From NCBI GenBank assembly GCA_041664225.1, contig JBAYLE010000003.1:15608-79607 (forward strand): DNA of 64,000 nt, written 5' to 3'. This stretch comes from Parcubacteria group bacterium (GTDB lineage: Bacteria; Patescibacteriota; Minisyncoccia; Moranbacterales; UBA2206). A program made the translations under genes and the position numbers. The notes under the pieces are model-generated. The model was not told the DNA's origin. It saw nothing but the letters and a program-made list of their open reading frames with translations, and did not search any database. Below are positions 1,753 through 44,174 of the stretch, in pieces; positions within the stretch are counted from its first letter, which is position 1, and each line of letters begins with the position of its first letter.

Positions 1753-1871
1753 AAAATAATTTACAATTTTCAATTTTCAATTTACAATCAATTTTCAATT
1801 ATTTAATTATCAATAACTTAAAATTTGAAAATTGGTTCATTGGAAATTCAATGAAAATTGATTACTGAGCA

Positions 1872-3235: not shown

Positions 3236-3255
3236 TCTACTTTTCAATAAAAGAA

Positions 3256-3285
3256 AAATCCCGATTAATCGGGATTTTTCTTTTG
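3256..3285. terminator. Bidirectional rho-independent terminator
   Basis: Hairpin aaatcccgattaatcgggattt flanked by an A-run and a T-run, between convergent genes. Confidence 0.7.
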
Positions 3286-10524: not shown

Positions 10525-10677
10525 AGTTAAAATCTTATCACTTATTGCCGTATTTGCATAGATTCACACAAAAAGCGTATCCATTACAAAACAGCAAACT
10601 CGGATCTGGCTATTGATTTATTTTGAGTTTATGTTATGCTTTCTACTGTTATTCGGAAATTGAAAATTACTGCAAAT

Positions 10678-31942: not shown

Positions 31943-34816
31943 TCAAAGATACTTCCCCGTCCAACTCCTTTTGCATTTTTTCAATTTGTCCGGTGTGCCG
32001 GCATAAACCACTTCGCCGCCCTTGTCCCCGCCTTCCGGCCCCAAATCAACCACCCAATCGGAATTGCGGATAACATCGACATTGTGTTCGACAACTAAAA
32101 CCGAATTGCCTTTTTCCACTAGTGCGTCCAAAACTTTCAGAAGTCTTTTCACATCGTCAAAATGCAAACCGATGGTTGGTTCGTCCAGAATATATAGGGT
32201 CTTGCCTGTGGATTTACGAGCCAGTTCCGTCGCCAACTTTATCCGCTGTGCCTCACCGCCAGAAAGATTGGTGGCGCTTTGGCCCAAACGCAGATATCCT
32301 AAGCCCACGTCTTCCAGAGTTTGCAATTTTTCCACGATTAGCGCGGATTTTTTGAAAAACCGTAAGGCGTAGGACACGCTCATATCCAAAACTTCAGCGA
32401 TATTCACGCCCTGATATTCAATGTCCAAAGTTTTTTGATTGTATCTGGTTCCATTACAGGCCTCACATTTAACATACATGTCCGGCAAAAGATGCATTTC
32501 GATTTTTTTGGTGCCATCGCCCTGGCAGACTTCGCAGCGCCCGCCCTTCATGTTGAAACTAAAGCGACTCGGAGCATAGCCCCGGCTTTTGGATTCTTCC
32601 GTATTCGCAAAAATATCCCGAATCAGTGAGAAAACCCCGGTATACGTAGCTGCGTTTGAACGCGGCGTTCTGCCGATCGGCGCCTGATCGATATTGATAA
32701 CTTTGTCGACATTATCCAGCCCCCTGACTCTTTTATGCAAGCCTGGCATTGCCTTGGCGCCAAAAAAGTACTTAGATAAAACTTTAGCCAGAATATCAGA
32801 AACCAGGGTCGATTTGCCCGATCCGGAAACACCAGTCATCGCCACAAATTTACCCAGTGGAATTTCTACATCGATATTTTTCAAGTTATGTTCCTGGGCT
32901 CCTATAATTTCGATAGACTTTTTATTGCCTTTGCGGAAACTTTTTTTCTCCGCCACTTTCTTCTTGCCAGTCAGATATTCCGCCGTGGACGTTTTTGATT
33001 TTAAGAGTTTTGCGAAATCGCCCTGAAAAATGACTTGACCGCCTTCCTCACCAGCTCCGGGACCCATATCAATGATCCAGTCAGCTTGGCGGATAATGTC
33101 CGCATCATGTTCAACCACAATCATTGAATTTCCTGCGTCTTTCAAGGCCTGCATAGTATTTATCAGCTTTTCGGTGTCGCGGTTATGGAGTCCGATCGAT
33201 GGCTCGTCCAAAACATAAGTGATGCCCATCAGTTCCGATCCGATCTGAGTAGCCAAACGGATCCGCTGTGCTTCACCGCCGGAAATCGAATTAGCGCCTC
33301 TGCTCAAAGATAAGTATTCCAAGCCTACATTGCAAAGAGCATCGGCTTTAAGCGCCATATCCTTGATCAATGGTTCAATTATTTTTTTCCGTCCGGGGTT
33401 CAATTCGATTTTTTTCAACTCTTCAAAGAATCCTTTCAATTTAACCAGATCCAGATGCACGACATCGTCGATGGATTTGTCAGCCACCAGCACCGATAAA
33501 TATTCTTTTTTTAATCTTTTGCCCTCACAGGCCGGACAGATTTTTTCCAGCATATACTTTTCCATATCGCCACGCACATAATCGGAAGTCGCCTCTTCAT
33601 ATTTTCGCTTGATCATAGGCAAAACACCCTCGAAAATCATTCGCACTTCCTTGACGCCCCCCATAGCATCCCGCTGCTGGATCGTAATTTCTTTCTGTTC
33701 CGGACCGTATAAAACAATCTCCAGCGCCTCTTTGGATAATTTTTTTATCGGTACATCCAAAGAAAAATCGTGTTTCCCTGCCAAGGCCCGTAAAATATTC
33801 AGATAATTTCCTTGTCCGCCTACCCGACCGTTGGATTTGCTCCATGGCAAAATCGCGCCTTCCGCCAAAGAAAGGTTTTTATTAGGCATAACCAAGTCGG
33901 CATCGACTTCTTTGGTGATACCCAAGCCGGAACAATGCGAGCAAGCACCTTCCGGATTATTAAAGGAGAAGTGTCTCGGCGTAATTTCGTTTACTCTGGT
34001 TTGACACCCATTGCAGACAAAGTCCCTATTGTACGTCCGATCCGCCTCTCCTTCTACTGAAATAATCAAAGATCCTCCGCCAACACGCAAGGCCGTCTCG
34101 ATCGAGTCCAATATTCTCTCTGTGTCCGGACTTTTAGCTTTGACTGAGAGGCGGTCAACCACTACTTCGATCTCACTTTCGATCTTGTCGCTAGCGACCA
34201 GGCTGGCTTCCGTCACCAGCATTATCTTTCCATTGAAACGGACGCGCGCGAATCCCAGCTGAGAGATACCGCGCAAATGATCCTTGTCGGTCGTCCGCCA
34301 GCTGGCGGAGCCGCTTTTTGCGGATTCTTTCGGTTTGGCCAATACGGCTATCTGCGTGTTGTCAGGCAAAGCAAAAATCTCATCTAGTATTTCCTGGTTG
34401 GTTTTTCTGAGCATCGGCGCCCCGCATTGCGGACAGTGCGGCGCTCCGATCTTGGCGAACAAAACACGGAGGTAGTCGTAGATCTCTGTCAAGGTTCCCA
34501 CGGTTGAACGCGGGCTCCTGCTTAAGCTTTTCTGGTCAATGGAAATAGTCGGACTTAGGTTTTCAATTTTGTCCACATCCGGCTTGGCACCGACATCCAA
34601 AAACTGCCGCGCGTATGATGACATACCCTCCAGATATCGGCGGTTGCCTTCCGCGTGCACCACATCAAAAGCCAATGAAGATTTACCCGATCCGGACAGC
34701 CCGGTGATCACCACTAGTTTGTCGCGCGGGATATCAATATCGATATTTTTTAAGTTATTGACCCTCGCTCCCCGGATAATAATTTTGTCCCTTTTGCAAT
34801 AAGTACCGTTCGCCAT
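31943..34816 (-). CDS. uvrA: Excinuclease ABC subunit A (full-length class I UvrA)
   Basis: Two ABC ATPase modules ([20 protein letters not shown]), zinc-finger cysteine clusters, LSGGEAQR signatures. Confidence 0.85.
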
Positions 34817-34882
34817 GCTTATAAACTAAGAAGTTAAATGCTAGTTATAAATTGTAAAGTACTTTTGGGGGTTTGTAAAGGG

Positions 34883-36235
34883 CTAGCTAAGCAGGTTCTT
34901 TCTGCGAAGTTTTTTGTGATATGTTATCGCAAACCGATGCGCTTCATCCATAATCCGCTTGATCAAATTTTTGTCATTGATAATGTTTTTTAAATTTGAA
35001 AATTTAGGAATTGAAAATTGATTGAAAATTGAAAATTGAAAATTGAGATTTTTGCGAGACTTTCCTTTGGCAATGGTAACCATTGGCATCTCTAAATTTA
35101 ATTCCTGCAATAATCTTTCAGCCATAAAAAGGTGCCCTTTCCCTCCATCCAACAAAATTAAATCTGGTTGCGGCCAATCATTTTGAAAACGGCGCAACAA
35201 AACTTCGCGCATCATACCCACATCATCTGTGCCTTCAACTGTTTTGATTTTAAATTTACGATACTGCGACTTGTCCGGTTCATTATTTTTGAAAACTACC
35301 ATCGAACCCACCGCATGAGCACCGGAAATGTTGGAAATATCATAAGCTTCAATTCTTATTGTTTCGGATTTTTGATTTATGATTTCTAATTTCTCATCGC
35401 TCGCGATGAGCGCCACATCACGGATGTGCTTCAGCGCAAAAACTTTATTCCTAGCGTCCGCTGCTTTTTCAAATTCATTATTTTTCGCGTAATTTTTCAT
35501 TTCTGTCTCTAGTTTTTTTATTAATCCTTTTTTTCGGCCTTCCAAAATCATTCTGATTCCACGAATATTTTTCATGTAATCCGCTTTAGAAATGGCGCCG
35601 GCATACGGCCCCGGACATCTGCCAATTTGAAAATCCAAACAGCCCCTCTCTGTTTTTTGATTATTGCTATGGAATGGAAAAATTTTTCGCAAAATTTTCA
35701 GCGCAATTTCCATTTGCTTTTTGGAAGTATAAGGACCAAAGGTCTTTGCAACCCTGACCCCCCTCTCCCTTTTTAGGGAGAGGGGCTGGGGGTGAGGGGG
35801 CAGATCCGTCGCTCTCAAAATCAGTACCCTCGGAAAATCTTCCTTAGTTATAACGAAATATGAAAATGACTTATCATCTTTCCCCATCGCGTTATACTTC
35901 GGCTGGAGTTTTTTGATCAGTTGCGCTTCCAAAATCAACGCCTCCAAAACCGAATCAGTTTCTCTCACTTCGATATCCGCAATCTGATCAATTGCATACT
36001 CGATCGGCCGATCCAAATTCCGCGCCGTAGCGTGTCGAAGCTTGGTGTCTTTTGGTCGTTTTGGTCGAGAGACACCGAGCTTCTTATCCGTAAGCGGCGT
36101 AGAAAAATACGACCCGACCCGGCTCCGCAAATTAGTCGCCTTCCCCACATACAAAACATCCCCGGCTTTATCCTTGAAAATATACACGCCAGGATTTTTG
36201 GGCAGCTTTAATATCTTAATTTTTAGGCTTGACAT
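34883..36235 (-). CDS. uvrC: Excinuclease ABC subunit C, short form (450 aa), carrying several in-frame repeat insertions
   Basis: N-terminal GIY-YIG (GVYIFKDKAGDVLYVGKATNLRSR), UVR domain, C-terminal endonuclease domain (AYDISN). Confidence 0.75.
   Translation of the reverse strand: MSSLKIKILKLPKNPGVYIFKDKAGDVLYVGKATNLRSRVGSYFSTPLTDKKLGVSRPKRPKDTKLRHATARNLDRPIEYAIDQIADIEVRETDSVLEALILEAQLIKKLQPKYNAMGKDDKSFSYFVITKEDFPRVLILRATDLPPHPQPLSLKRERGVRVAKTFGPYTSKKQMEIALKILRKIFPFHSNNQKTERGCLDFQIGRCPGPYAGAISKADYMKNIRGIRMILEGRKKGLIKKLETEMKNYAKNNEFEKAADARNKVFALKHIRDVALIASDEKLEIINQKSETIRIEAYDISNISGAHAVGSMVVFKNNEPDKSQYRKFKIKTVEGTDDVGMMREVLLRRFQNDWPQPDLILLDGGKGHLFMAERLLQELNLEMPMVTIAKGKSRKNLNFQFSIFNQFSIPKFSNLKNIINDKNLIKRIMDEAHRFAITYHKKLRRKNLLS
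34985..35050. repeat. GAAAATT heptamer tandem array inside the uvrC coding frame
   Basis: ggaattgaaaattgattgaaaattgaaaattgaaaattgag is nearly identical to the reverse complement of the array at 1760-1800; translated as NLNFQFSIFNQFSIPKF. Confidence 0.7.
35745..35791. repeat. Palindromic G/C-rich mini-insertion inside uvrC (in-frame)
   Basis: ccctctccctttttagggagagggg hairpin plus ctgggggtgagggggc; locally GC-rich; encodes LPPHPQPLSLKRERG. Confidence 0.55.
36038..36083. repeat. Palindromic mini-insertion with core cttttggtcgttttggtcgaga inside uvrC (in-frame)
   Basis: gaagcttggtgtc [ttttggtcgttttggtcgaga] gacaccgagcttc; same core as the element in uvrA2 at 38890-38944. Confidence 0.65.
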
Positions 36236-36275
36236 CGGCTAAATTATATGCTAAAAGATATTATACACAAATAAA

Positions 36276-36710
36276 TTGTTAAAACAGGAGGTTATAATGA
36301 TAGGTTTAGCTATAGCTCTTTTTATTTTCGTTTGGTTGGATATGAAGTATATTTACGAGGACGGTAATAATACTATTACCGCTGCACATGTAGCAGCCAA
36401 GTTTCTGTTTGTATGGTATTTGGTTCTTGGCCCGATTATGTTTGCCGGTACATTTCTCGTTACCGGGCTAGACTCCGCCAAGGTCAGCCACGTGGCTACT
36501 TATTATCCCATGCCTTCACTGATTGACAAAAATGTTCTATTGACTTTGTTTTTTGCTTATGTCGTCAGATCGGCACTCGGTATTTTTGGTGCCTATCTGA
36601 TAAAAACTGCAACGTTTCCTCCAAAAACAACCCTCGAGGGATTGGACGCTAAGAAGATTATCACCGGCTTGGTTTTAATTTTCGGAGGAATCTTCGTAGG
36701 ATTATTCTAA
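36276..36710 (+). CDS. Hypothetical 4-TM membrane protein
   Basis: ORF with four hydrophobic helices between uvrC and uvrA2. Confidence 0.4.
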   Translation: MLKQEVIMIGLAIALFIFVWLDMKYIYEDGNNTITAAHVAAKFLFVWYLVLGPIMFAGTFLVTGLDSAKVSHVATYYPMPSLIDKNVLLTLFFAYVVRSALGIFGAYLIKTATFPPKTTLEGLDAKKIITGLVLIFGGIFVGLF

Positions 36711-36754
36711 AGTTTGATACCAATTAACGTCAGAATAGAAGATATTCTGACGTC

Positions 36755-39667
36755 TTATTTTTTCAAAACCTCCCTCAAAAACTTTCCTGTATAACTCTCT
36801 TTATGATACTTTGCCACTTCTTCCGGTTCGCCGGTGACGACCACTCGGCCTCCCTCATCCCCGCCTTCAGGGCCAAGATCGATAATCCAATCAGCGGTTT
36901 TGATGACGTCCATATTATGTTCAATGACCACCACGCTGTTGCCTGCATCCACCAGGCGATTCAGAACTCCCAACAATTTTTTGATATCATCAAAATGCAA
37001 GCCTGTCGTCGGTTCGTCCAAGATGTATAAAGTATTACCGGTCGCCCGCCGGGAAAGTTCCGTCGCGAGTTTGATTCGTTGCGCCTCCCCGCCAGAAAGC
37101 GTAGTGGCCGCCTGCCCGAGCTGGATATACCCGAGTCCCACATCTTCCAAAACAGACAGCTTGTCATTGAGGTCATGATAATTCCCAAAAAATTCGCGCG
37201 CTTCCATAACGTTCATTTCCAAAACTTCAGCGATATTTTTCCCTTTATATTTTACATGCAGAGTTTCACTATTATATCTTTTGCCATGGCAAACATCGCA
37301 AGAGATAAAAACATCCGGCATAAACTGCATCTCAATTTTGAGCAGGCCTTGCCCCTGGCAATTGTCGCATCTTCCTCCGCTGACATTAAAAGAAAACCGG
37401 CCCGGCAGATAGCCCTTAGCTTTGGCATCTTTGGTCGCGGCAAAAATTTCTCGAATCTCGGAAAACATTCCAGTGTAAGTTGCCGGATTTGACCGCGGAG
37501 TGCGCCCGATCGGCGACTGGTCGATCATAATGACTTTGTCCACATGTTGCGTCCCCACAATTTCCGCGTGTTTCCCCGGCCGTTCCAGAGAATGCATCAG
37601 TTTGCTCGACAAAGATTTATATAAAATATCTTCCACCAGCGATGATTTGCCCGAACCGGAAACGCCCGTCACCACCGTCATGACTTTGAGCGGAAATTCC
37701 ACAGTAATATTTTTCAAATTATTCTCCCGCGCTCCCCGCACCACCAGCCATTTTTTGTTTTTGACCGGCCGGCGGAATTTCGGCACCTCGATTTTCAATT
37801 CTCCGCGCAAATATTTAGCCGTGATGGATTTGGGATGACCCATCACTTCCTGCGGACTACCTTGCGCCACTATTTCCCCGCCCAATTTTCCCGCACCCGG
37901 ACCGATGTCTACCAAATGATCTGCCTCGCGCATCGTCTCTTCATCATGTTCAATCACGATTAAGGTGTTTCCGATATCGCGCAATTGCAAAAGTGTGTTC
38001 AAAAGTTTCGAATTGTCACGCGCGTGCAGACCGATCGATGGCTCATCCAAAATATACAAAACCCCCACTAATTGCGATCCGATCTGGGACGCCAATCTGA
38101 TCCTTTGGGTTTCTCCACCCGCTAAAGTGTTAGCGGAACGCGCCAAAGTCAGATAATTCAATCCGACATTGTCCAAAAAACCCAGCCGCGCCACAATTTC
38201 TTTGCAAATTTTGCCGGCAATCTGTTTCTCTCGATCATTTAATTCCAACTCTTTAAAAAATTTCAACGAATCGCTTACGCTTACAGACGAAACTTCATGA
38301 ATATTTTTCCCACCTACTGTAACTAACAAAGTTTCAGGCTTGTAGCGCATTCCATGACAGGCCGAACATGGATTTTGCGACATATATTTTTCAATCCCCT
38401 CGCGCACCGCGTCTGAATCGGTTTTAAAATATCGTTCCTGCATAAAACCAACCACGCCCCGCCAGGACATATAAAATTTCCAGTTGGTTCCGGTCTTGGC
38501 GCGAATTGTAATCGGCACTTCCTCGGCATCTTTTTCTGAGATCATATCTTCGGCATCCCGCGCACCATATAATAATATATTTACTTTTTCTTTTGGTAAA
38601 TCACGCAGTCTGACATTATCCGAAATATGAAAATATTTCGCCACCGACAAAATCACCCCGCCATAATAATTATTCCTCTTGAAATTCCACGGCGCCAATC
38701 CGCCTTCGGAAATCGTTTTGGTCATATCCGGCATCACTAAATCCGGATCAATTTCTTTTTTGGTGCCCAAGCCTTCGCAGGTCGGGCAAGCTCCGTACGG
38801 AGAGTTGAAAGAAAAAAGCCGCGGCTCCAATTCTGGAAACTCGACATCATGATCCGGACAAGCTAATTTTTGATTATAAATTATTGAATCGGAGAGGTTC
38901 GACCTCTTTTGGTCGTTTCGGTCGAGAGAGGTCGAACCTCTTTTTATAATTTTGATTTTCACTAAACCATTGGAAAGTTTCAGCGCTTTTTCCACATCTT
39001 CAAAAATACGGGAAATATTTTGATCGTTTATTCCAATCGCGTCGATCACGATATCAATCTTGTGCATCTTGTAGCGCGCCAACGGAATTTTGGTTTTGGG
39101 ATTAAGCTCATATTTTTTACCATTGACATAAGCTTTGGAAAAGCCACGTTTATACATTTCTAAAAGCAAAGTTGAATATTCGCCTTTACGTCCGCGCACC
39201 ACCGGCGACAAAATCTCGATTGTTGCCCCCTCACCAATTTCCAGAATCTTGCTGACAATTTCATCCGTGGAAAGCTTGGAAATTTCTTGCCCATCAACCG
39301 GACAATGTGGGATGCCGATTTTGGCATACAGCAAACGCAAGTAATCGTGAATTTCCGTTACAGTTCCCACTGTAGAACGCGGATTTTGCGAAGCAGATTT
39401 TTGCGAAATAGAAATGGCCGGCGAAAGCCCTTCGATATAATCGACATCCGGTTTTTCCATCTGCCCCAAAAACTGTCGGGCATAGGCCGACAAGCTTTCC
39501 AAATATCTTCTCTGTCCTTCGGCAAAAATAGTATCAAAAGCCAGAGTCGATTTCCCCGACCCGGAAATACCGGTAAAAACAATAAATTTATCCCGCGGCA
39601 ACTCGAGATCGATATTTTTCAGATTATGTTCACGCGCGCCTTTTATAATAATTTTGTTCATAAACAC
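36755..39667 (-). CDS. uvrA: Second full-length UvrA paralogue (excinuclease ABC subunit A)
   Basis: Two ABC modules ([20 protein letters not shown]), [16 protein letters not shown] signatures, zinc-finger cysteines; contains an in-frame palindromic insertion. Confidence 0.85.
38890..38944. repeat. Palindromic mini-insertion with core cttttggtcgtttcggtcgaga inside uvrA2 (in-frame)
   Basis: gagaggttcgacctc [ttttggtcgtttcggtcgaga] gaggtcgaacctc; encodes [18 protein letters not shown]. Confidence 0.65.
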
Positions 39668-39745
39668 AAAAAACTTCCCCTTTTATGGGTACTTAATATT
39701 AACTTTTAACTAATACACTTTAGCACGACTTCGTATTGCAATCAA

Positions 39746-39955
39746 TCATTGGATATTCCCGTCCTGATTTCGAAACCAGATATAAATAACCAGCACAAAG
39801 GCCACTGTGACTGAGAATATAAGTATCGCAAAGGGTTCTGTATCACTCAGTTTTTCCGTCAGCCATTGGTAATAGGCCGGCCAGTAGCCGTTGATTAATT
39901 TTTGATAGACCTGGGTAACAAGTTCCATAGATTTTACCCCTTTATTATACCACAA
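39746..39955 (-). CDS. Small 2-TM membrane protein (hypothetical)
   Basis: 69-aa ORF with two hydrophobic helices. Confidence 0.35.
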   Translation of the reverse strand: MWYNKGVKSMELVTQVYQKLINGYWPAYYQWLTEKLSDTEPFAILIFSVTVAFVLVIYIWFRNQDGNIQ

Positions 39956-39984
39956 AAAAAACTACGCCTTTTTATGGGCGTAGT
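39954..39984 (-). terminator. Rho-independent terminator for the upstream minus-strand gene
   Basis: ctacgcctttttatgggcgtag hairpin followed by a T-run on the minus strand. Confidence 0.65.
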
Positions 39985-40006
39985 TCTGATTTGCATAATT
40001 TAAAGT

Positions 40007-41098
40007 TTAGCTTCCGCAGGAAGCGTTTGGATCTGTTGCTGATCCACTAGCCGCTGGAGTAGCCGCAGCCGCTCCTTCTCCAAATCCCGCAGCCGGAGCG
40101 ATTGTGGAAAGTTTAGTTTGGCATTCTTTCGGTGCAGTATTAAAGGCATCACAGATCGTTTTCAAAATACTAGCTGAATCCCGGCCGGCCGATTGAGCCT
40201 CAACGCCATTGATGACTAAAGCTGGCGAGCCTTGCACACCGTATTTTGTATTGTCATCTTTATTCACATTAAATGGAGGGAATTGCCCATTGTTCCATTT
40301 GCTTTTGTCAGCCGCATCTTTGGTAATGTTAAATTGAGCATCAGTCTGGGCTACGCAGCTCGCAACTTGTGAAACGCTTACTCCGGTCGAGGCCATACAA
40401 CTGGCTTCAGTACCTTCTCCTTTTTTCAAGAAGCAAGTCAGATAAGCTGACAATTTCGCCGGCTGATTCTTTTGAATGCAGTATTGGCGCAAATTCTCCG
40501 CGATTTCCTTATCACCATGCATCGCGTAATCTACGAATTCCAAAGTATACTTGATCTTATTTCCCAAAGCGGCCACTACCGGCAAGATTCCTTTTTCTAT
40601 CTGCGTTCCAAACGGACAATAACTCATGACAAACAATTTCACTTCCGGAACATCACTCTTTGTTACCGGCGTGTTAGCTTTTTCCTCTTGTTTTTTAGCT
40701 GCCTCTTTTTGTTTCTCTATTTCATCAAAGGTTATAGCCTGCTGGATAAACTTTGTTCCATCTTTGGTCACATATACCGGCTGGTCCTGCCCATTTACAC
40801 TCACCGTGATCTTATACAAATCTCCATCCTCCATAACATCTTTGACTGTCGCGGTTCCACCGCTGTCTTTTACCAGCGCCTCTATTTTTGCCCTAGCTTC
40901 TTCTTTAGTTATGCCTTTTGAAAATAATTTTTTAAAATTAAAATTGTTTGGATCTTTTGCATAAATCGCATAACCGACAATAAGAAGCAAAATAACTACC
41001 CCCAAAACAGCTTTTACGTTAAAGCTCCGAGGGGACCACTTGGATTTTGCCGTTTCCTTCGGCTGATCTTCAGTTTTGTTTTCAGGAATATTTCCCAT
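40007..41098 (-). CDS. Membrane-anchored secreted thioredoxin-fold (DsbA-like) protein with a monothiol CPFG motif
   Basis: N-terminal TM anchor; FVMSYCPFGTQ at the expected CxxC position; Ala/Gly-rich C-terminal tail. Confidence 0.45.
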   Translation of the reverse strand: MGNIPENKTEDQPKETAKSKWSPRSFNVKAVLGVVILLLIVGYAIYAKDPNNFNFKKLFSKGITKEEARAKIEALVKDSGGTATVKDVMEDGDLYKITVSVNGQDQPVYVTKDGTKFIQQAITFDEIEKQKEAAKKQEEKANTPVTKSDVPEVKLFVMSYCPFGTQIEKGILPVVAALGNKIKYTLEFVDYAMHGDKEIAENLRQYCIQKNQPAKLSAYLTCFLKKGEGTEASCMASTGVSVSQVASCVAQTDAQFNITKDAADKSKWNNGQFPPFNVNKDDNTKYGVQGSPALVINGVEAQSAGRDSASILKTICDAFNTAPKECQTKLSTIAPAAGFGEGAAAATPAASGSATDPNASCGS

Positions 41099-41209
41099 AC
41101 TTTATTTGTTAAAATTTAAATTACTTGTTCATTTTACACCTCTTAGTAAAATCAGACAACTCCCCTAGTTGCCATACTCAAAAAAGGACCTCTTAAAGCC
41201 ACTTTTTGC

Positions 41210-41635
41210 TTAAGTTAAGTTTTGATTTTCATTTTTATGTATCTCGTCCAGAAACTCCCTAATTTCTTTGACCAAATCCGATGGCGTCCTTTCCGGCTTC
41301 ACAAAAAAACGGTCAGCGCCCAACTCTTTGGCTCTTTCCCTATCTTCAGGAGAGCTCAAGCTGGTTAACATGATAATCGGTATCTTTTTGTATTTACCCC
41401 AAGAGGATCTGATTTTTTCCAACACATCATATCCATCCATTTTTGGCATCACCACGTCCAAAAGCACCAGATCCAGAATCTCAAAGTTTTCTTTAATCTT
41501 GCGTATCGCTTCTTCTCCATCGCTAGCCGTAATGACCACGAAGCCCTCGCTCGTCAATTTTTGCGAGTATATCTCTATTAAATTTTCGTCATCATCCACG
41601 ATCAGGACTGTTATTTTTTTTTCTGCCTGTTCCAT
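41210..41635 (-). CDS. Response regulator, receiver domain only
   Basis: VLIVDDDENL, LVLLDVVMPKMDG, TSLSSPED, K at C-terminus. Confidence 0.75.
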   Translation of the reverse strand: MEQAEKKITVLIVDDDENLIEIYSQKLTSEGFVVITASDGEEAIRKIKENFEILDLVLLDVVMPKMDGYDVLEKIRSSWGKYKKIPIIMLTSLSSPEDRERAKELGADRFFVKPERTPSDLVKEIREFLDEIHKNENQNLT

Positions 41636-41685
41636 ATTTTTTGTTTTTTACAATCCGTAAGTGTTTGTCCGGATTGCATTTTTGT

Positions 41686-42039
41686 TTATTTAAAATAATT
41701 TATAATGGTCGCAAAGATAGTATGCAGACGAAAAGGATTATTTTCGATGCCTAACATGGAAAACAGCATATTTAAAGCAAACGTAATAACAATAAAGGCA
41801 ATAAAAATAATCAAAATAGAAAGAGGGATCAGGCTTATGAAAAATTCTTTTATTCTTTTGTGGCGCTTTTTAAGCGCGGCGTAAGATTGATAGTGCTGAT
41901 CCAACCGGGTATTTTCAATCTCTCTTCCTTCCCGCTGGAGCTTTTGAATCCTGATTTCCGTATCTGAAGGATACTTAAAAATCACGTAATACGCATCCTT
42001 GAGATAGATTTTTATTTTTCGCAGTGCTTCGTTCATCAA
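41686..42039 (-). CDS. Hypothetical membrane protein
   Basis: ORF with two hydrophobic helices. Confidence 0.35.
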   Translation of the reverse strand: MMNEALRKIKIYLKDAYYVIFKYPSDTEIRIQKLQREGREIENTRLDQHYQSYAALKKRHKRIKEFFISLIPLSILIIFIAFIVITFALNMLFSMLGIENNPFRLHTIFATIINYFK

Positions 42040-42212
42040 GTAATATAAGTAATTCTAATTTAATTATACTACAAACCTACTTTTGCATCAACCCCGTCAG
42101 AAGTTTCAGAAAGTGCTTGTTGATACCAAAATACAAAGGCGAAGCCGCTTCGCTCGAGCATATTCCTAAAAAACAAAACCTATGATGAACTTCATACGGG
42201 GTCAACCTCGTC

Positions 42213-44174
42213 TCATCCCGCCTGCAATTTCCGCAATTCTCCGATTTCATCTCTTATTATGGCGGCTTTTTCAAACTCCAGCGCCCGAGAGGCTTCCTTC
42301 ATCTCGCGCTCGCGCTGTTTGATGTAGCCTTGCAAATCTTCCAGAGATTCCAATTCGGTGAAATCGCGCGTAACTTCAGGCTTCAATTCATGATCCACAA
42401 TGGACTGGATTTTCTTTTTGATGGTGGTCGGGGTGATACGATGCTTTTTATTATGGGCCACTTGAATTTTGCGCCGGCGGTCGGTTTCACCAATCGCCCG
42501 TTTCATGGAGCCGGTAATCTGGTCAGCGTATAAAATAACTCTGCCGGAAACATTCCTGGCCGCTCGGCCGATGGTTTGAATAAGCGAAGTTTCACTCCGC
42601 AAAAATCCTTCCTTGTCCGCGTCCAGAATTGCTACCAAAGACACTTCCGGCAGATCCAATCCTTCGCGCAAAAGATTCACGCCCACCAAAACATCAAATT
42701 TGCCGCGCCGTAAATTTTCCAAAATTCGCACACGATCCAATGTTTCCACTCCGCTGTGGAGATATTCAGCTTTCACTTTTGATTCTTTTAAAAAGTCCGA
42801 GAGGTCTTCTGCCATTTTTTTGGTCAGCGTCGTCACTAAAACTCTTTCTTTTTTGGCTACTATTTTTTTAATTTCGGAAATAACATCCTTCACTTGCCCT
42901 TTGGCGGGCTTGATGGTTAGTTCCGGATCAATAAGCCCGGTCGGACGAATAATTTGCTCGGCAATTTGAGTAGAATTTTTTCTTTCGTAATCTGCCGGCG
43001 TGGCTGAAGTAAAAATCAGCTGATTAATTTTTTTCTCAAATTCACTAAATTTAAGCGGTCGATTATCAAAAGCGCTCGGCAGGCGAAAACCGTTGTCCAC
43101 CAAAGATTTTTTCCGCGAATAATCGCCGTTATACATCCCGTTTAATTGGGGTATAGTTACGTGCGATTCATCAACGACCATTAAAAAATCTTCTGGAAAA
43201 TAATCTATCAGAGTATATGGCGCCTCGCCGGGCTGTCTTCCAGTGAGAAAGCGTGAATAATTTTCGATCCCGTTGCAATAACCGATTTCGCGCATCATTT
43301 CGATGTCCTGTTTGGTGCGCCGCTCCAGCCTTTCGGCTTCCAGCAACTTATTATGATCCCGTAAATATTTCACTCTGTTTTTGGCTTCGGTTTCTATTTT
43401 TTCAAGCGCCCTTTCCATCAGCGGCTCCGGCACCACAAAATGCTTAGCCGGATAAATTAAGATTTTGTCTAGTCTTCCCAATTCATCACCAGTTAGAAAA
43501 TCGTATTCACTAATTTTAGTAATCTTATCCTGCTCAAGACTGATCCTAGTTACAATTTCCCGCGCCGGTGACATAATCTCAATCGTCGGACCCGTCACCC
43601 GGAATTTTCCGCGGCTCAAAAGATCGGTGCGCCCATAATGCATCTCCACTAATTTATTGATCAATTCGCTTCTATCAACTTTTTCTCCCTTTTTTATTTC
43701 CAAAGAAATATCGCGGTAAAATTCCGGCGAGCCCAAGCCATAGATACAGGAAACGGAAGCGACGATAATGACATCCTGACGACTCATGAGCGCAACCGTA
43801 GCCGCGTGGCGAAGACGGTCGATCTCATCATTGATCTGCGCTTCTTTTTCAATATAGGTGTCCGACGAAGCAATGTAGGCTTCCGGCTGATAGTAATCAT
43901 AATAGGAAACAAAATATTCCACCGCGTTCTTGGGAAAAAAGGTGCGAAATTCCTGCGCTAACTGCGCCGCCAAAGTTTTATTAGGCGCGATTACCAGCGT
44001 CGGCTTCTGAACTTTTTCAATCACATTAGCAATCGTAAAAGTTTTGCCAGATCCCGTCACGCCCAAAAGCGTCTGGAATTTTTGTCCAGCCTTGAGGCCC
44101 TGAACCAGCTTCTCAATCGCCTGCGGTTGATCGCCGTCCGGTTTGTATTTTGAATTGATCTTAAATTTCTGCAT
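42213..44174 (-). CDS. uvrB: Excinuclease ABC subunit B
   Basis: Helicase motif I GVTGSGKT, beta-hairpin region, DESH box, C-terminal UVR domain. Confidence 0.9.

Follow-up and report, generated by a model that had tools for sequence, protein, structure and literature searches.

Rickettsia palindromic elements (RPEs; Ogata et al. 2000 Science 290:347), as summarised in PMC10969869, are palindromic repeats that lie in frame in unrelated conserved genes of a small-genome bacterium and are translated as additional surface segments that the protein fold accommodates, and that summary associates no transposase with them. It describes them as ~100-150 bp long and present in tens of copies per genome, with each family encoding one peptide. 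Here we analysed a 64-kb stretch of a contig of a Parcubacteria group bacterium (the window; coordinates without a locus name are window positions), in which the repair genes uvrC and uvrA each carry a palindromic hairpin element within the coding sequence. The element is of the RPE-like kind, being a repeated palindrome at unrelated sites that is inserted in frame in conserved open reading frames (ORFs) and is absent from orthologues. It differs from the RPEs in that it is only ~49 nt long, occurs in 2-3 copies per genome, is used in three frames and occasionally reversed, is modular with self-palindromic arms, is biased to repair genes and belongs to a different phylum. Its length (47-49 nt) and the absence of a match in Rfam set it apart from the families RPE-1 to RPE-10 proper.

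Other groups of short hairpins share part of these features. Repetitive extragenic palindromes (REPs) and bacterial interspersed mosaic elements resemble the element as imperfect palindromes of 20-40 nt with compensatory stems and a conserved part, presumably handled as folded single strands, but REPs are extragenic, abundant and accompanied by the transposase RAYT (TnpA-REP), whereas the element is intragenic at 16 of ~20 sites and no Y1 transposase was seen in the window. Stems of one type found here (type C below) start with GTAG as REPs do, and GTAG is confined to that stem type. The dRS3/NTS hairpin repeats of Neisseria are bound by Ssn, a GIY-YIG single-stranded DNA (ssDNA) nuclease that modulates transformation and affects genome dynamics (PMC11893778). 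The likeness to NTS/Ssn and to Correia repeats lies in the hairpins, a conserved oriented motif, the clustering around particular genes and a presumed trans-acting reader of single strands. NTS are, however, intergenic, number hundreds of copies and have a known nuclease, whereas the core of the element is unrelated to them in sequence and no partner was found for it in this analysis. DNA uptake sequences and uptake signal sequences of Neisseriaceae and Pasteurellaceae are short conserved words that lie in genes in several frames, often as inverted pairs. Those of Neisseria are reportedly enriched in genome-maintenance genes, the original paper dating from 2004. Uptake sequences occur about once per kb, whereas the element, with two copies in 64 kb and no more than 2 exact cores in any representative genome, is at least 30-fold rarer and falls outside that class. 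Mitochondrial coding palindromes of Nematomorpha (PMC6649704) and repetitive hairpin-forming elements of sponges (PMC2800124) are hairpins or inverted repeats in frame in conserved genes, and both of their arms are translated. They differ from the element in being organellar, in size and sequence, and in having no shared apical module on interchangeable stems. Yeast mitochondrial GC clusters are a further organellar case of hairpins. Full-text literature searches returned no description of in-frame palindromic insertions in Patescibacteria. The phenomenon is of a known kind, alongside RPEs, in-frame miniature inverted-repeat transposable elements and organellar coding palindromes. The element is a distinct variant within it, small, with modular stems and a G.U-rich apical module, used in all frames, low in copy number and biased to repair genes.

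The hairpin element in uvrC and uvrA

The element consists of two 14-15-nt arms around a 19-nt apical module of two TTTGGTCG units, ~49 nt in total. Both copies in the window follow this plan, sharing the 19-nt core between inverted repeats, and both lie in frame inside long minus-strand ORFs (Table 1). Copy 1 is located in the GIY-YIG domain of UvrC and has a stem of type B with one T.G pair; copy 2 is located at the end of the UvrB-binding domain of UvrA, ~10 residues ahead of the ACP..C zinc-module motif, and its type A stem is perfect (15/15 pairs). A search with a 21-nt core and up to 3 mismatches gave exactly two matches in 64 kb, and 0 of 100 shuffles gave any. A covariance model run on the window with the filters off detected only the same two copies, at 80.7 bits (uvrA) and 72.9 bits (uvrC), and the next best hit scored ~15 bits. 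An earlier, sequence-only reading of this stretch had proposed a core shared by uvrC and uvrA, inverted repeats around it and in-frame insertion in both genes, and these three points are borne out. The core is read as SRPKRPK in uvrC and as LDRNDQK in uvrA, indicating by the different reading frames that the shared feature is DNA, not peptide. The minus-strand uvrC reads copy 1 as KKLGVSRPKRPKDTKL and uvrA reads copy 2 as 16 residues. That the insert adds residues to UvrA had been stated correctly in that reading, but the peptide given was wrong, its 'RFDL' coming from another frame.

UvrA could be aligned end to end with solved UvrA structures, with a 16-residue gap at the hairpin segment as the sole exception (PDB 2r6f); the insert site aligns to this gap in the loop preceding the zinc module of 2r6f. 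Among 120 close relatives, the nearest (P0122, locus L038; UvrA 88% identical) is without the 16 codons and reads KIKQLRKEFVYNQ where the window reads KIKIIK, the 16 residues and SDSIIYNQ. The codons missing in L038 correspond to the 15 + 19 + 14 nt of the hairpin. The whole syntenic uvrB-uvrA-uvrC-uvrA' region of L038 is free of copies. The element is an insertion made of both arms plus the core. No target-site duplication was discernible between the window and the empty L038 site, where the junction is ambiguous at 88% amino acid identity. The idea that the stems represent a duplicated palindromic target was rejected for UvrA, since the empty L038 site holds no such palindrome.

In an alignment of 36 orthologues, whose lengths range from 401 to 499 aa, copy 1 occupies the first of five UvrC hot spots, which are short or empty in many species. 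All three insert segments of the window UvrC, including two of other origin that are described below, fall at alignment hot spots and are missing from many orthologues. The variable segments 47-75, 143-170, 276-290 and 393-405 have a predicted local distance difference test (pLDDT) score below 50 in the AlphaFold model, a low confidence that is not proof of exposure, and residues 47-75 and 143-170 are modelled as coil. The comparison with orthologues confirmed the segments in both UvrA and UvrC as insertions, as had been anticipated from the sequence.

Across 27 copies of the family, pairing holds in 95.8% of the cells; both partners vary in 12 of the 22 pairs, and compensation is seen in 60 cells. 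None of 500 shuffles reached these values and slid controls gave 34-53% pairing, indicating that the 15 outer pairs form a real, maintained helix. The stems had been taken as specific to each copy, but they belong to recurrent types: A (AGAGGTTCGACCTCT; in UvrA, Fpg, LigA, GltX and others), A' (type A with one pair changed), B (..CTTGGTGTCT; in UvrC, ArgS, MPG and RecG), C (AGCGGTCCGACCCCT), D (AGAAGCTAAGCTTCT) and E (GACATCCGATGTCT). In most copies each arm is itself palindromic (6-7 of 7 self-pairs), so that the two arms are also direct repeats with 12-14 of 15 bases identical. Stem A contains GGTTCGA and in this recalls a tRNA T-arm; the likeness was set aside because the other stem types do not share it.

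The core, previously described as a conserved loop, is open on the mRNA-sense strand only. The opposite strand gains 7 pairs, 4 of them G.U, and retains an apical loop of 3-5 nt. RNA folding gave -31.4 and -37.5 kcal/mol for the antisense strand versus -19.9 and -26.6 kcal/mol for the sense strand, whereas the strand difference was small with DNA parameters (-13.8 vs -9.8 and -17.8 vs -15.9 kcal/mol). Variation within the core is confined to the central 4 nt, the apical loop in the antisense-strand fold. The inner core pairs never covary, and the extension of the antisense-strand fold by these pairs is thus suggested but not proven. The wobble pairs of the outer stem favour the antisense strand (16 vs 7 cells), a count that overstates the number of independent events because several were inherited together, the type B stems in particular sharing ancestry.

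On this strand the element might serve as an RNA hairpin, either terminating antisense transcription within genes or acting as a small antisense RNA. Its antisense fold is a continuous stem of 22-25 bp (z = -5.9 and -6.5) that includes four invariant G.U pairs, which are typical of RNA, and a T-run follows the uvrA copy and others (Fpg, UvrA orthologues, AtpA), all of which score as terminators. We nevertheless regard this role as very unlikely, since neither the uvrC copy nor about half of the copies have a T-run, the T-runs are explicable by flanking Lys codons, the inner pairs do not covary, and no antisense promoter stands out (16 promoter-like sites vs 10.6 +/- 3.4 in shuffles). Within the window, only the uvrA copy with its downstream TTTTTATAATTTTG qualifies as an intrinsic terminator, on the strand antisense to uvrA only. 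The same copy looks promoter-like, with TCGAGA of the core as the -35 box and a perfect TATAAT, again antisense to uvrA. A frameshift stimulator was also considered and rejected; A-runs lie directly beside the stem in some copies, but at an unsuitable spacing, and the arrangement is not general.

Distribution and turnover of the family

We scanned the core against one genome per species and against a metagenome collection, and then applied a hairpin scan and the covariance model R1 to all fetched loci. About 30 copies were found at 16 coding and 4 intergenic sites, all in Patescibacteria contigs from Moranbacteria-like genomes. Patescibacteria account for 7 of the 11 core matches in species-representative genomes and for ~17 of the 20 metagenome loci. 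Every family copy has complementary flanking arms, whereas chance matches in Proteobacteria and Planctomycetes have none. The possibility that the core occurs nowhere else had been raised against the proposal of a shared element; it recurs in related genomes, always with paired arms. No core match was found in viral contigs, which gives no sign of a phage vector, and a search of the region against Rfam 15 gave no family match, only a chance-level Ysr49 hit elsewhere in uvrA (21.8 bits vs a gathering score of 95).

The host genes were confirmed with Pfam. The element lies in the sense orientation at two sites each in UvrC and PolA (5'-exonuclease and palm domains) and at one site each in UvrA, Fpg/MutM, LigA, a FemAB-like protein, AtpA, TsaE, GltX, ArgS and an unknown ORF (L014). 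The one site in MPG is filled in two genomes, sense in L028 and reversed in L007, and the one site in RecG is reversed. The intergenic share (~4 of 20 sites) is close to the non-coding share of the window (~13%), indicating that genes are not avoided. All sense frames are in use (frame 1 at 3 sites, frame 2 at 8 and frame 3 at 3) and give the core peptides SRPKRPK, LDxNDQK or STKTTK; the two reversed copies, which are 3.8 kb apart in one genome, give FGRFGRE. One orientation is common to 14 of the 16 coding sites (binomial estimate p ~0.002), and this is the orientation with hydrophilic peptides and the weaker mRNA hairpin. All six frames are open in 13 of the 27 copies, including both consensus types, versus 3-9% of composition-matched controls; the sense frames encode SRPKRPK, LDRNDQK and STKTTK and the reverse frames FWSFWSR, FGRFGRE and LVVLVE. 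The three sense frames, the two reversals and the paired arms support the earlier view of a structured nucleic-acid element, whose relevant form may be a DNA cruciform, ssDNA or RNA. In MPG, the element occupies the same 17 codons in L007 and L028, and the two genomes differ in its stems and have its core in opposite directions. Since human AAG has an ordinary segment of similar length at this position, the element may replace native sequence in MPG rather than add to it.

As far as the sequences can tell, a function at the protein level is excluded, since different frames are used. Selection on the inserted peptides themselves, for example as basic DNA-contacting loops in repair enzymes, would fit the location of insertions in DNA-repair proteins and the basic SRPKRPK that frame 1 provides at two UvrC sites. 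The same DNA is, however, translated into acidic or polar LDRNDQK in UvrA, PolA, MPG and ArgS and into STKTTK in Fpg, LigA and AtpA, third codon positions are kept in the element (see below), close relatives do without the peptide, and the region is modelled as disordered. Such selection is thus extremely improbable.

Stem and core assort independently. At the UvrA site, stem A is combined with the core in the window and with an unrelated 21-nt loop in L040 (81% amino acid identity). L034 joins stem A' to an 8-nt loop, the core is borne by other stems in L039 and L032, and L038 is empty. In AtpA (L021) the core sits on stem D, which in MetG (L018) bears a different loop. The combination of stem B and core, encoding KKLGVSRPKRPKDTK, occupies UvrC site 1 in the window and UvrC site 2 in P0004, where the copy is known from the peptide only. 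Copies within a genome are alike, as the three L034 copies share stem A' and the three L032 copies share a C-like stem; the UvrA proteins of L032 and L034 are 88% identical, whereas their elements at the same site are only 46% identical. Only 3 of 120 UvrA and 8 of 120 UvrC relatives carry the core. The turnover at fixed loops, the reshuffling and the homogenisation within genomes together point to gene conversion, repeated insertion, or both.

The UvrA loop at around residue 240 is hypervariable in 120 relatives (P0121-P0240; 72-100% identical, 935-1073 aa). It is empty in a few of them and otherwise contains members of at least five unrelated repeat families, among them AT-rich 'SNPKSQI/NFQF' arrays, G/C 'SPLKRGRG' palindromes, and CCCGTTAAAT-type and GGAGCTGAGCTCC hairpins. 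By their peptides, the hairpins there include 'HPVKS..EFNGV' and 'QELSS..QELSS' types, and stem-A hairpins with other loops occur at this position. In Fpg, a different hairpin fills the site that holds the core element in L002. Conserved enzymes of related genomes also contain unrelated perfect palindromes in frame, with stems of 13-22 nt (Table 1).

Explanations for the spread and conservation of the element

We consider that the element is probably a frame-tolerant, RPE-like palindromic repeat, low in copy number and native to Moranbacteria-like Patescibacteria, which lies largely inside coding genes and turns over by conversion. It would be propagated as nucleic acid, not as peptide. New or replacement copies would come from insertion into surface loops that tolerate it, from gene conversion among the short elements of one genome, which are in part homologous, or from both, and conversion would reshuffle stems and loops and homogenise the stems within a genome. 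The arms may be kept complementary by selection for the hairpin or by arm-to-arm template switching. Purifying selection on the host protein would act as a filter, whose survivors stay in frame, are free of stop codons and encode a peptide that is hydrophilic and disordered; the filter would explain the in-frame state, the orientation bias and the six-frame openness of the consensus. The conserved core would most likely be recognised by the mobilising or converting enzyme, probably as a folded single strand. We infer the conversion or insertion mechanism and the trans-acting factor from these patterns, as well as that the peptides are tolerated rather than useful.

Several observations weigh against this account, which leaves the low copy number, the mobiliser, the conservation of the core and the excess of repair genes unexplained. 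For a selfish repeat, two copies in 64 kb and no more than 2-3 in any representative genome are very few, and a six-frame peptide query against 5.8 billion proteins gave 87 word-sharing candidates, none of them at E <= 10. No transposase, RAYT-like or nuclease gene was found with Pfam among the 38 window ORFs that were scanned. The gene lists of the related loci contain no transposase either, and the related autonomous insertion sequence that characterises miniature inverted-repeat transposable elements was not seen. The core is conserved beyond neutral expectation. Between the window and L005, third codon positions of UvrA are 48% identical, and the element is identical at 51 of 57 positions, including 17 of 19 third codon positions within it; the MPG genes of L007 and L028 share 59% identity, and a single base distinguishes their cores. 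Such conservation needs continuing conversion or real selection on the sequence. If arm-to-arm template switching alone kept the palindrome, it should have 'corrected' the four conserved G.U pairs in the core. Furthermore, 9-10 of the 16 coding sites are in DNA-repair genes (UvrA, UvrC twice, Fpg, LigA, PolA twice, MPG and RecG), an excess that random insertion and filtering alone does not predict. When the three sites of the window itself are left out, repair genes make up 6-7 of 13 sites, with a binomial p of ~1e-3 to 2e-5 on a background of 5-10% of the coding length that was assumed, not measured. The bias is partly confounded, since the copies cluster 2.8-3.8 kb apart in clustered repair genes and the host loops are hot for every repeat family.

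The predominance of repair genes could instead reflect a cis-acting mRNA signal that is selected by the host and marks excision-repair genes. Its CGACC-N4-CGACC loop would be read by a protein or a small RNA, similar to an iron-responsive element but in coding sequence. This explanation is in line with the core being kept across frames and across genomes whose synonymous sites are saturated while the stems drift with compensation, with the sense orientation at 14 of 16 sites, and with the 19-nt open loop that the sense-strand core forms on a strong stem. It is decidedly unlikely, however, in view of the sporadic occurrence of the core in UvrA and UvrC and its absence from the closest relative. 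The host loops also accept unrelated repeats, or the same stem with a loop unrelated to the core, and the position within the gene is arbitrary, from ~codon 35 to ~codon 850. AtpA, TsaE, GltX, ArgS and FemAB are hosts outside repair, the clustering of both copies and repair genes inflates the bias, and the variable core positions fit the apical loop of the opposite-strand fold.

Conversion between copies might also be driven from outside the repeat. If the element were a DNA recognition site for a single-strand nuclease, a recombinase or an uptake machinery, it would affect how the genes carrying it are transformed or recombined, repeated cleavage and repair would drive copy-to-copy conversion, and the concerted stems within genomes and the conserved core would fit such a drive. 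Hairpins read by a GIY-YIG ssDNA nuclease are documented (PMC11893778). Type IV pilus/competence-type genes adjoin the uvr cluster, NTS-like hairpins (CGGGAATCCAG) occur in related loci, and the bias of Neisseria uptake sequences mentioned above would be a parallel. No candidate enzyme was identified, however; uptake sequences are denser by orders of magnitude than the element, which occurs at ~1 per 30 kb or less, and the strand asymmetry with DNA parameters is small. We therefore hold this explanation, too, to be decidedly doubtful. In a broader form, it is unlikely but conceivable that the conserved TTTGGTCG-N-TTTGGTCG module on its exchangeable, covarying stems is a nucleotide-level signal under host or drive selection and preferentially marks excision-repair genes (uvrA, uvrC, fpg, mpg, polA, ligA, recG) in Moranbacteria. 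Such a marker could be a post-transcriptional regulon inside coding sequence, or an ssDNA nuclease or uptake site that promotes the recombinational renewal of repair genes, neither of which has been described in Patescibacteria.

Further repeats, gene context and implications

In addition to copy 1, uvrC hosts two repeat-derived in-frame insertions of other families, and both insertions named beside the hairpin in the sequence-only reading are real. The G/C-rich nested palindrome at hot spot 2 is present as claimed, at coordinates corrected in Table 1. It represents a different repeat family (CCCTCTCCC...GGGAGAGGG) that is also found in related loci and in UvrA and UvrC relatives, and its segment has a pLDDT below 50 at UvrC residues 143-170. 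The AT-rich array at the C-terminal hot spot is likewise present, and its unit is the 7-nt AAAATTG in 8.1 copies, with revised ends. In relatives, the UvrA hot spot is most often filled by this AT-rich type. The AAAATTG/CAATTTT repeat is also intergenic in the window, where one occurrence is an inverted pair after a ClpB-like gene. A perfect 36-nt palindrome without spacer between convergent ORFs is probably a bidirectional terminator. GTCATTGCGAG and CGGGAATCCAG...CTAGATTCCCG hairpins, one of them at the C-terminus of a ComF-like ORF of the window, recall the Neisseria NTS/Ssn-related motif (CGTCATTCCCGCG...GCGGGAATCYRG) in its head and tail, and related 'VIPSLSR/VIASEAKQS' peptides are in-frame inserts in UvrC relatives.

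The region contains a minus-strand trio of a UvrA paralogue, uvrC and canonical uvrA. The host of copy 2, which had been called a second uvrA, is the canonical one (1182 bits against G. stearothermophilus UvrA), and the paralogue, which is without any of the hairpins, is the other gene. The window UvrC is 100% identical to a protein of a metagenome-assembled genome designated 'Parcubacteria group bacterium' (124-kb contig), and its relatives are from Moranbacteria and Parcubacteria. Synteny is kept in L032, L034/L035, L038 and L041, in the order uvrB, canonical uvrA, small ORFs, uvrC and a second full-length UvrA paralogue, followed by a histidine kinase/response regulator and then PilB/PilC-type genes. 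Between uvrC and uvrA the window has a hydrophobic plus-strand ORF without a Pfam match, with a canonical terminator behind it; in relatives, other small ORFs take this place. The GC skew is negative over the whole window, ~-0.14 at minus-strand genes and ~0 at plus-strand genes, and shows no sign change, so that no origin or terminus lies there. Orientation relative to replication, as judged by GC skew, was dropped as an explanation since two copies are too few to use.

Table 1. Positions of the hairpin copies, other repeats and genes in the window and in related loci.
Feature	Sequence	Positions	Strand	Details
Hairpin copy 1, in uvrC	window	36037-36083	+ listed (best-folding strand)	GAAGCTTGGTGTCT / TTTGGTCGTTTTGGTCGAG / AGACACCGAGCTTC; uvrC hot spot 1
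Copy 1 arms	window	36037-36050 and 36070-36083		type B stem
Copy 1 core	window	36051-36069		TTTGGTCGTTTTGGTCGAG
Hairpin copy 2, in uvrA	window	38893-38941	+ listed	AGAGGTTCGACCTCT / TTTGGTCGTTTCGGTCGAG / AGAGGTCGAACCTCT
Copy 2 arms	window	38893-38907 and 38927-38941		type A stem
Copy 2 core	window	38908-38926		TTTGGTCGTTTCGGTCGAG
Hypervariable UvrA loop	window	38890-38960
Terminator-like uvrA copy	window	38896-38950	+	20-bp stem; antisense to uvrA
uvrC	window	34883-36235	-	450 aa, short form of the candidate phyla radiation (CPR); GIY-YIG, UvrC_M, UVR and RNase-H-like domains; hosts copy 1
Canonical uvrA	window	36755-39667	-	970 aa; hosts copy 2
UvrA paralogue	window	31943-34816	-
Region of kept synteny	window	31943-44174
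G/C-rich nested palindrome	window	35752-35798		uvrC hot spot 2; CCCTGACCCCC / CCTCTCCC-TTTTTA-GGGAGAGG / GGGGGTGAGGG; read as PPHPQPLSLKRERGVRV
AAAATTG array	window	34992-35046		uvrC, C-terminal hot spot; read as NLNFQFSIFNQFSIPKF
ORF between uvrC and uvrA	window	36276-36710	+	144 aa
Canonical terminator	window	36727-36753		after ORF 36276-36710
AAAATTG/CAATTTT repeat	window	1758-1837		intergenic; inverted pair
AAAATTG/CAATTTT repeat	window	near 10655		intergenic
Perfect palindrome	window	3249-3284		AAAAGAAAAATCCCGATT/AATCGGGATTTTTCTTTT
NTS-like hairpin	window	2583		in ComF-like ORF 1872-2624
NTS-like hairpins	L015	2844-2888 and 6260-6304
NTS-like hairpin	L031	9495-9537
MPG with element	L007	6855-7457
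MPG with element	L028	10168-10824
Unrelated in-frame palindrome	L007	3801-3834		RecG
Unrelated in-frame palindrome	L005	4873-4909		UvrA
Unrelated in-frame palindrome	L002	247-304		PolA
Unrelated in-frame palindrome	L020	7817-7862		Fpg
Unrelated in-frame palindrome	L029	3178-3224		ArgS
Unrelated in-frame palindrome	L018	10804-10846		MetG
Unrelated in-frame palindrome	L024	13542-13589		Mur ligase

Genomes of Patescibacteria, or CPR, are small, gene-dense and mostly known from metagenomes, and many of their conserved proteins have lineage-specific insertions that are unexplained. The present results show that, in one clade, some of these insertions are short genomic repeats, namely hairpins, G/C palindromes and AT-rich arrays, which land, exchange and vanish at a few hypervariable loops of housekeeping enzymes. 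This gives a concrete source of protein length variation and is a warning against reading such segments as functional protein motifs. The repeats also serve as a natural marker for turnover at the strain level. Among in-frame repeats, the hairpin family stands out by its small size, its modular stems and core, the conservation of the core beyond neutral expectation in three frames and an apparent preference for repair genes. If this preference is true, it would represent an unrecognised link of a structured DNA or RNA signal to genome maintenance, in organisms that are thought to depend heavily on DNA uptake.

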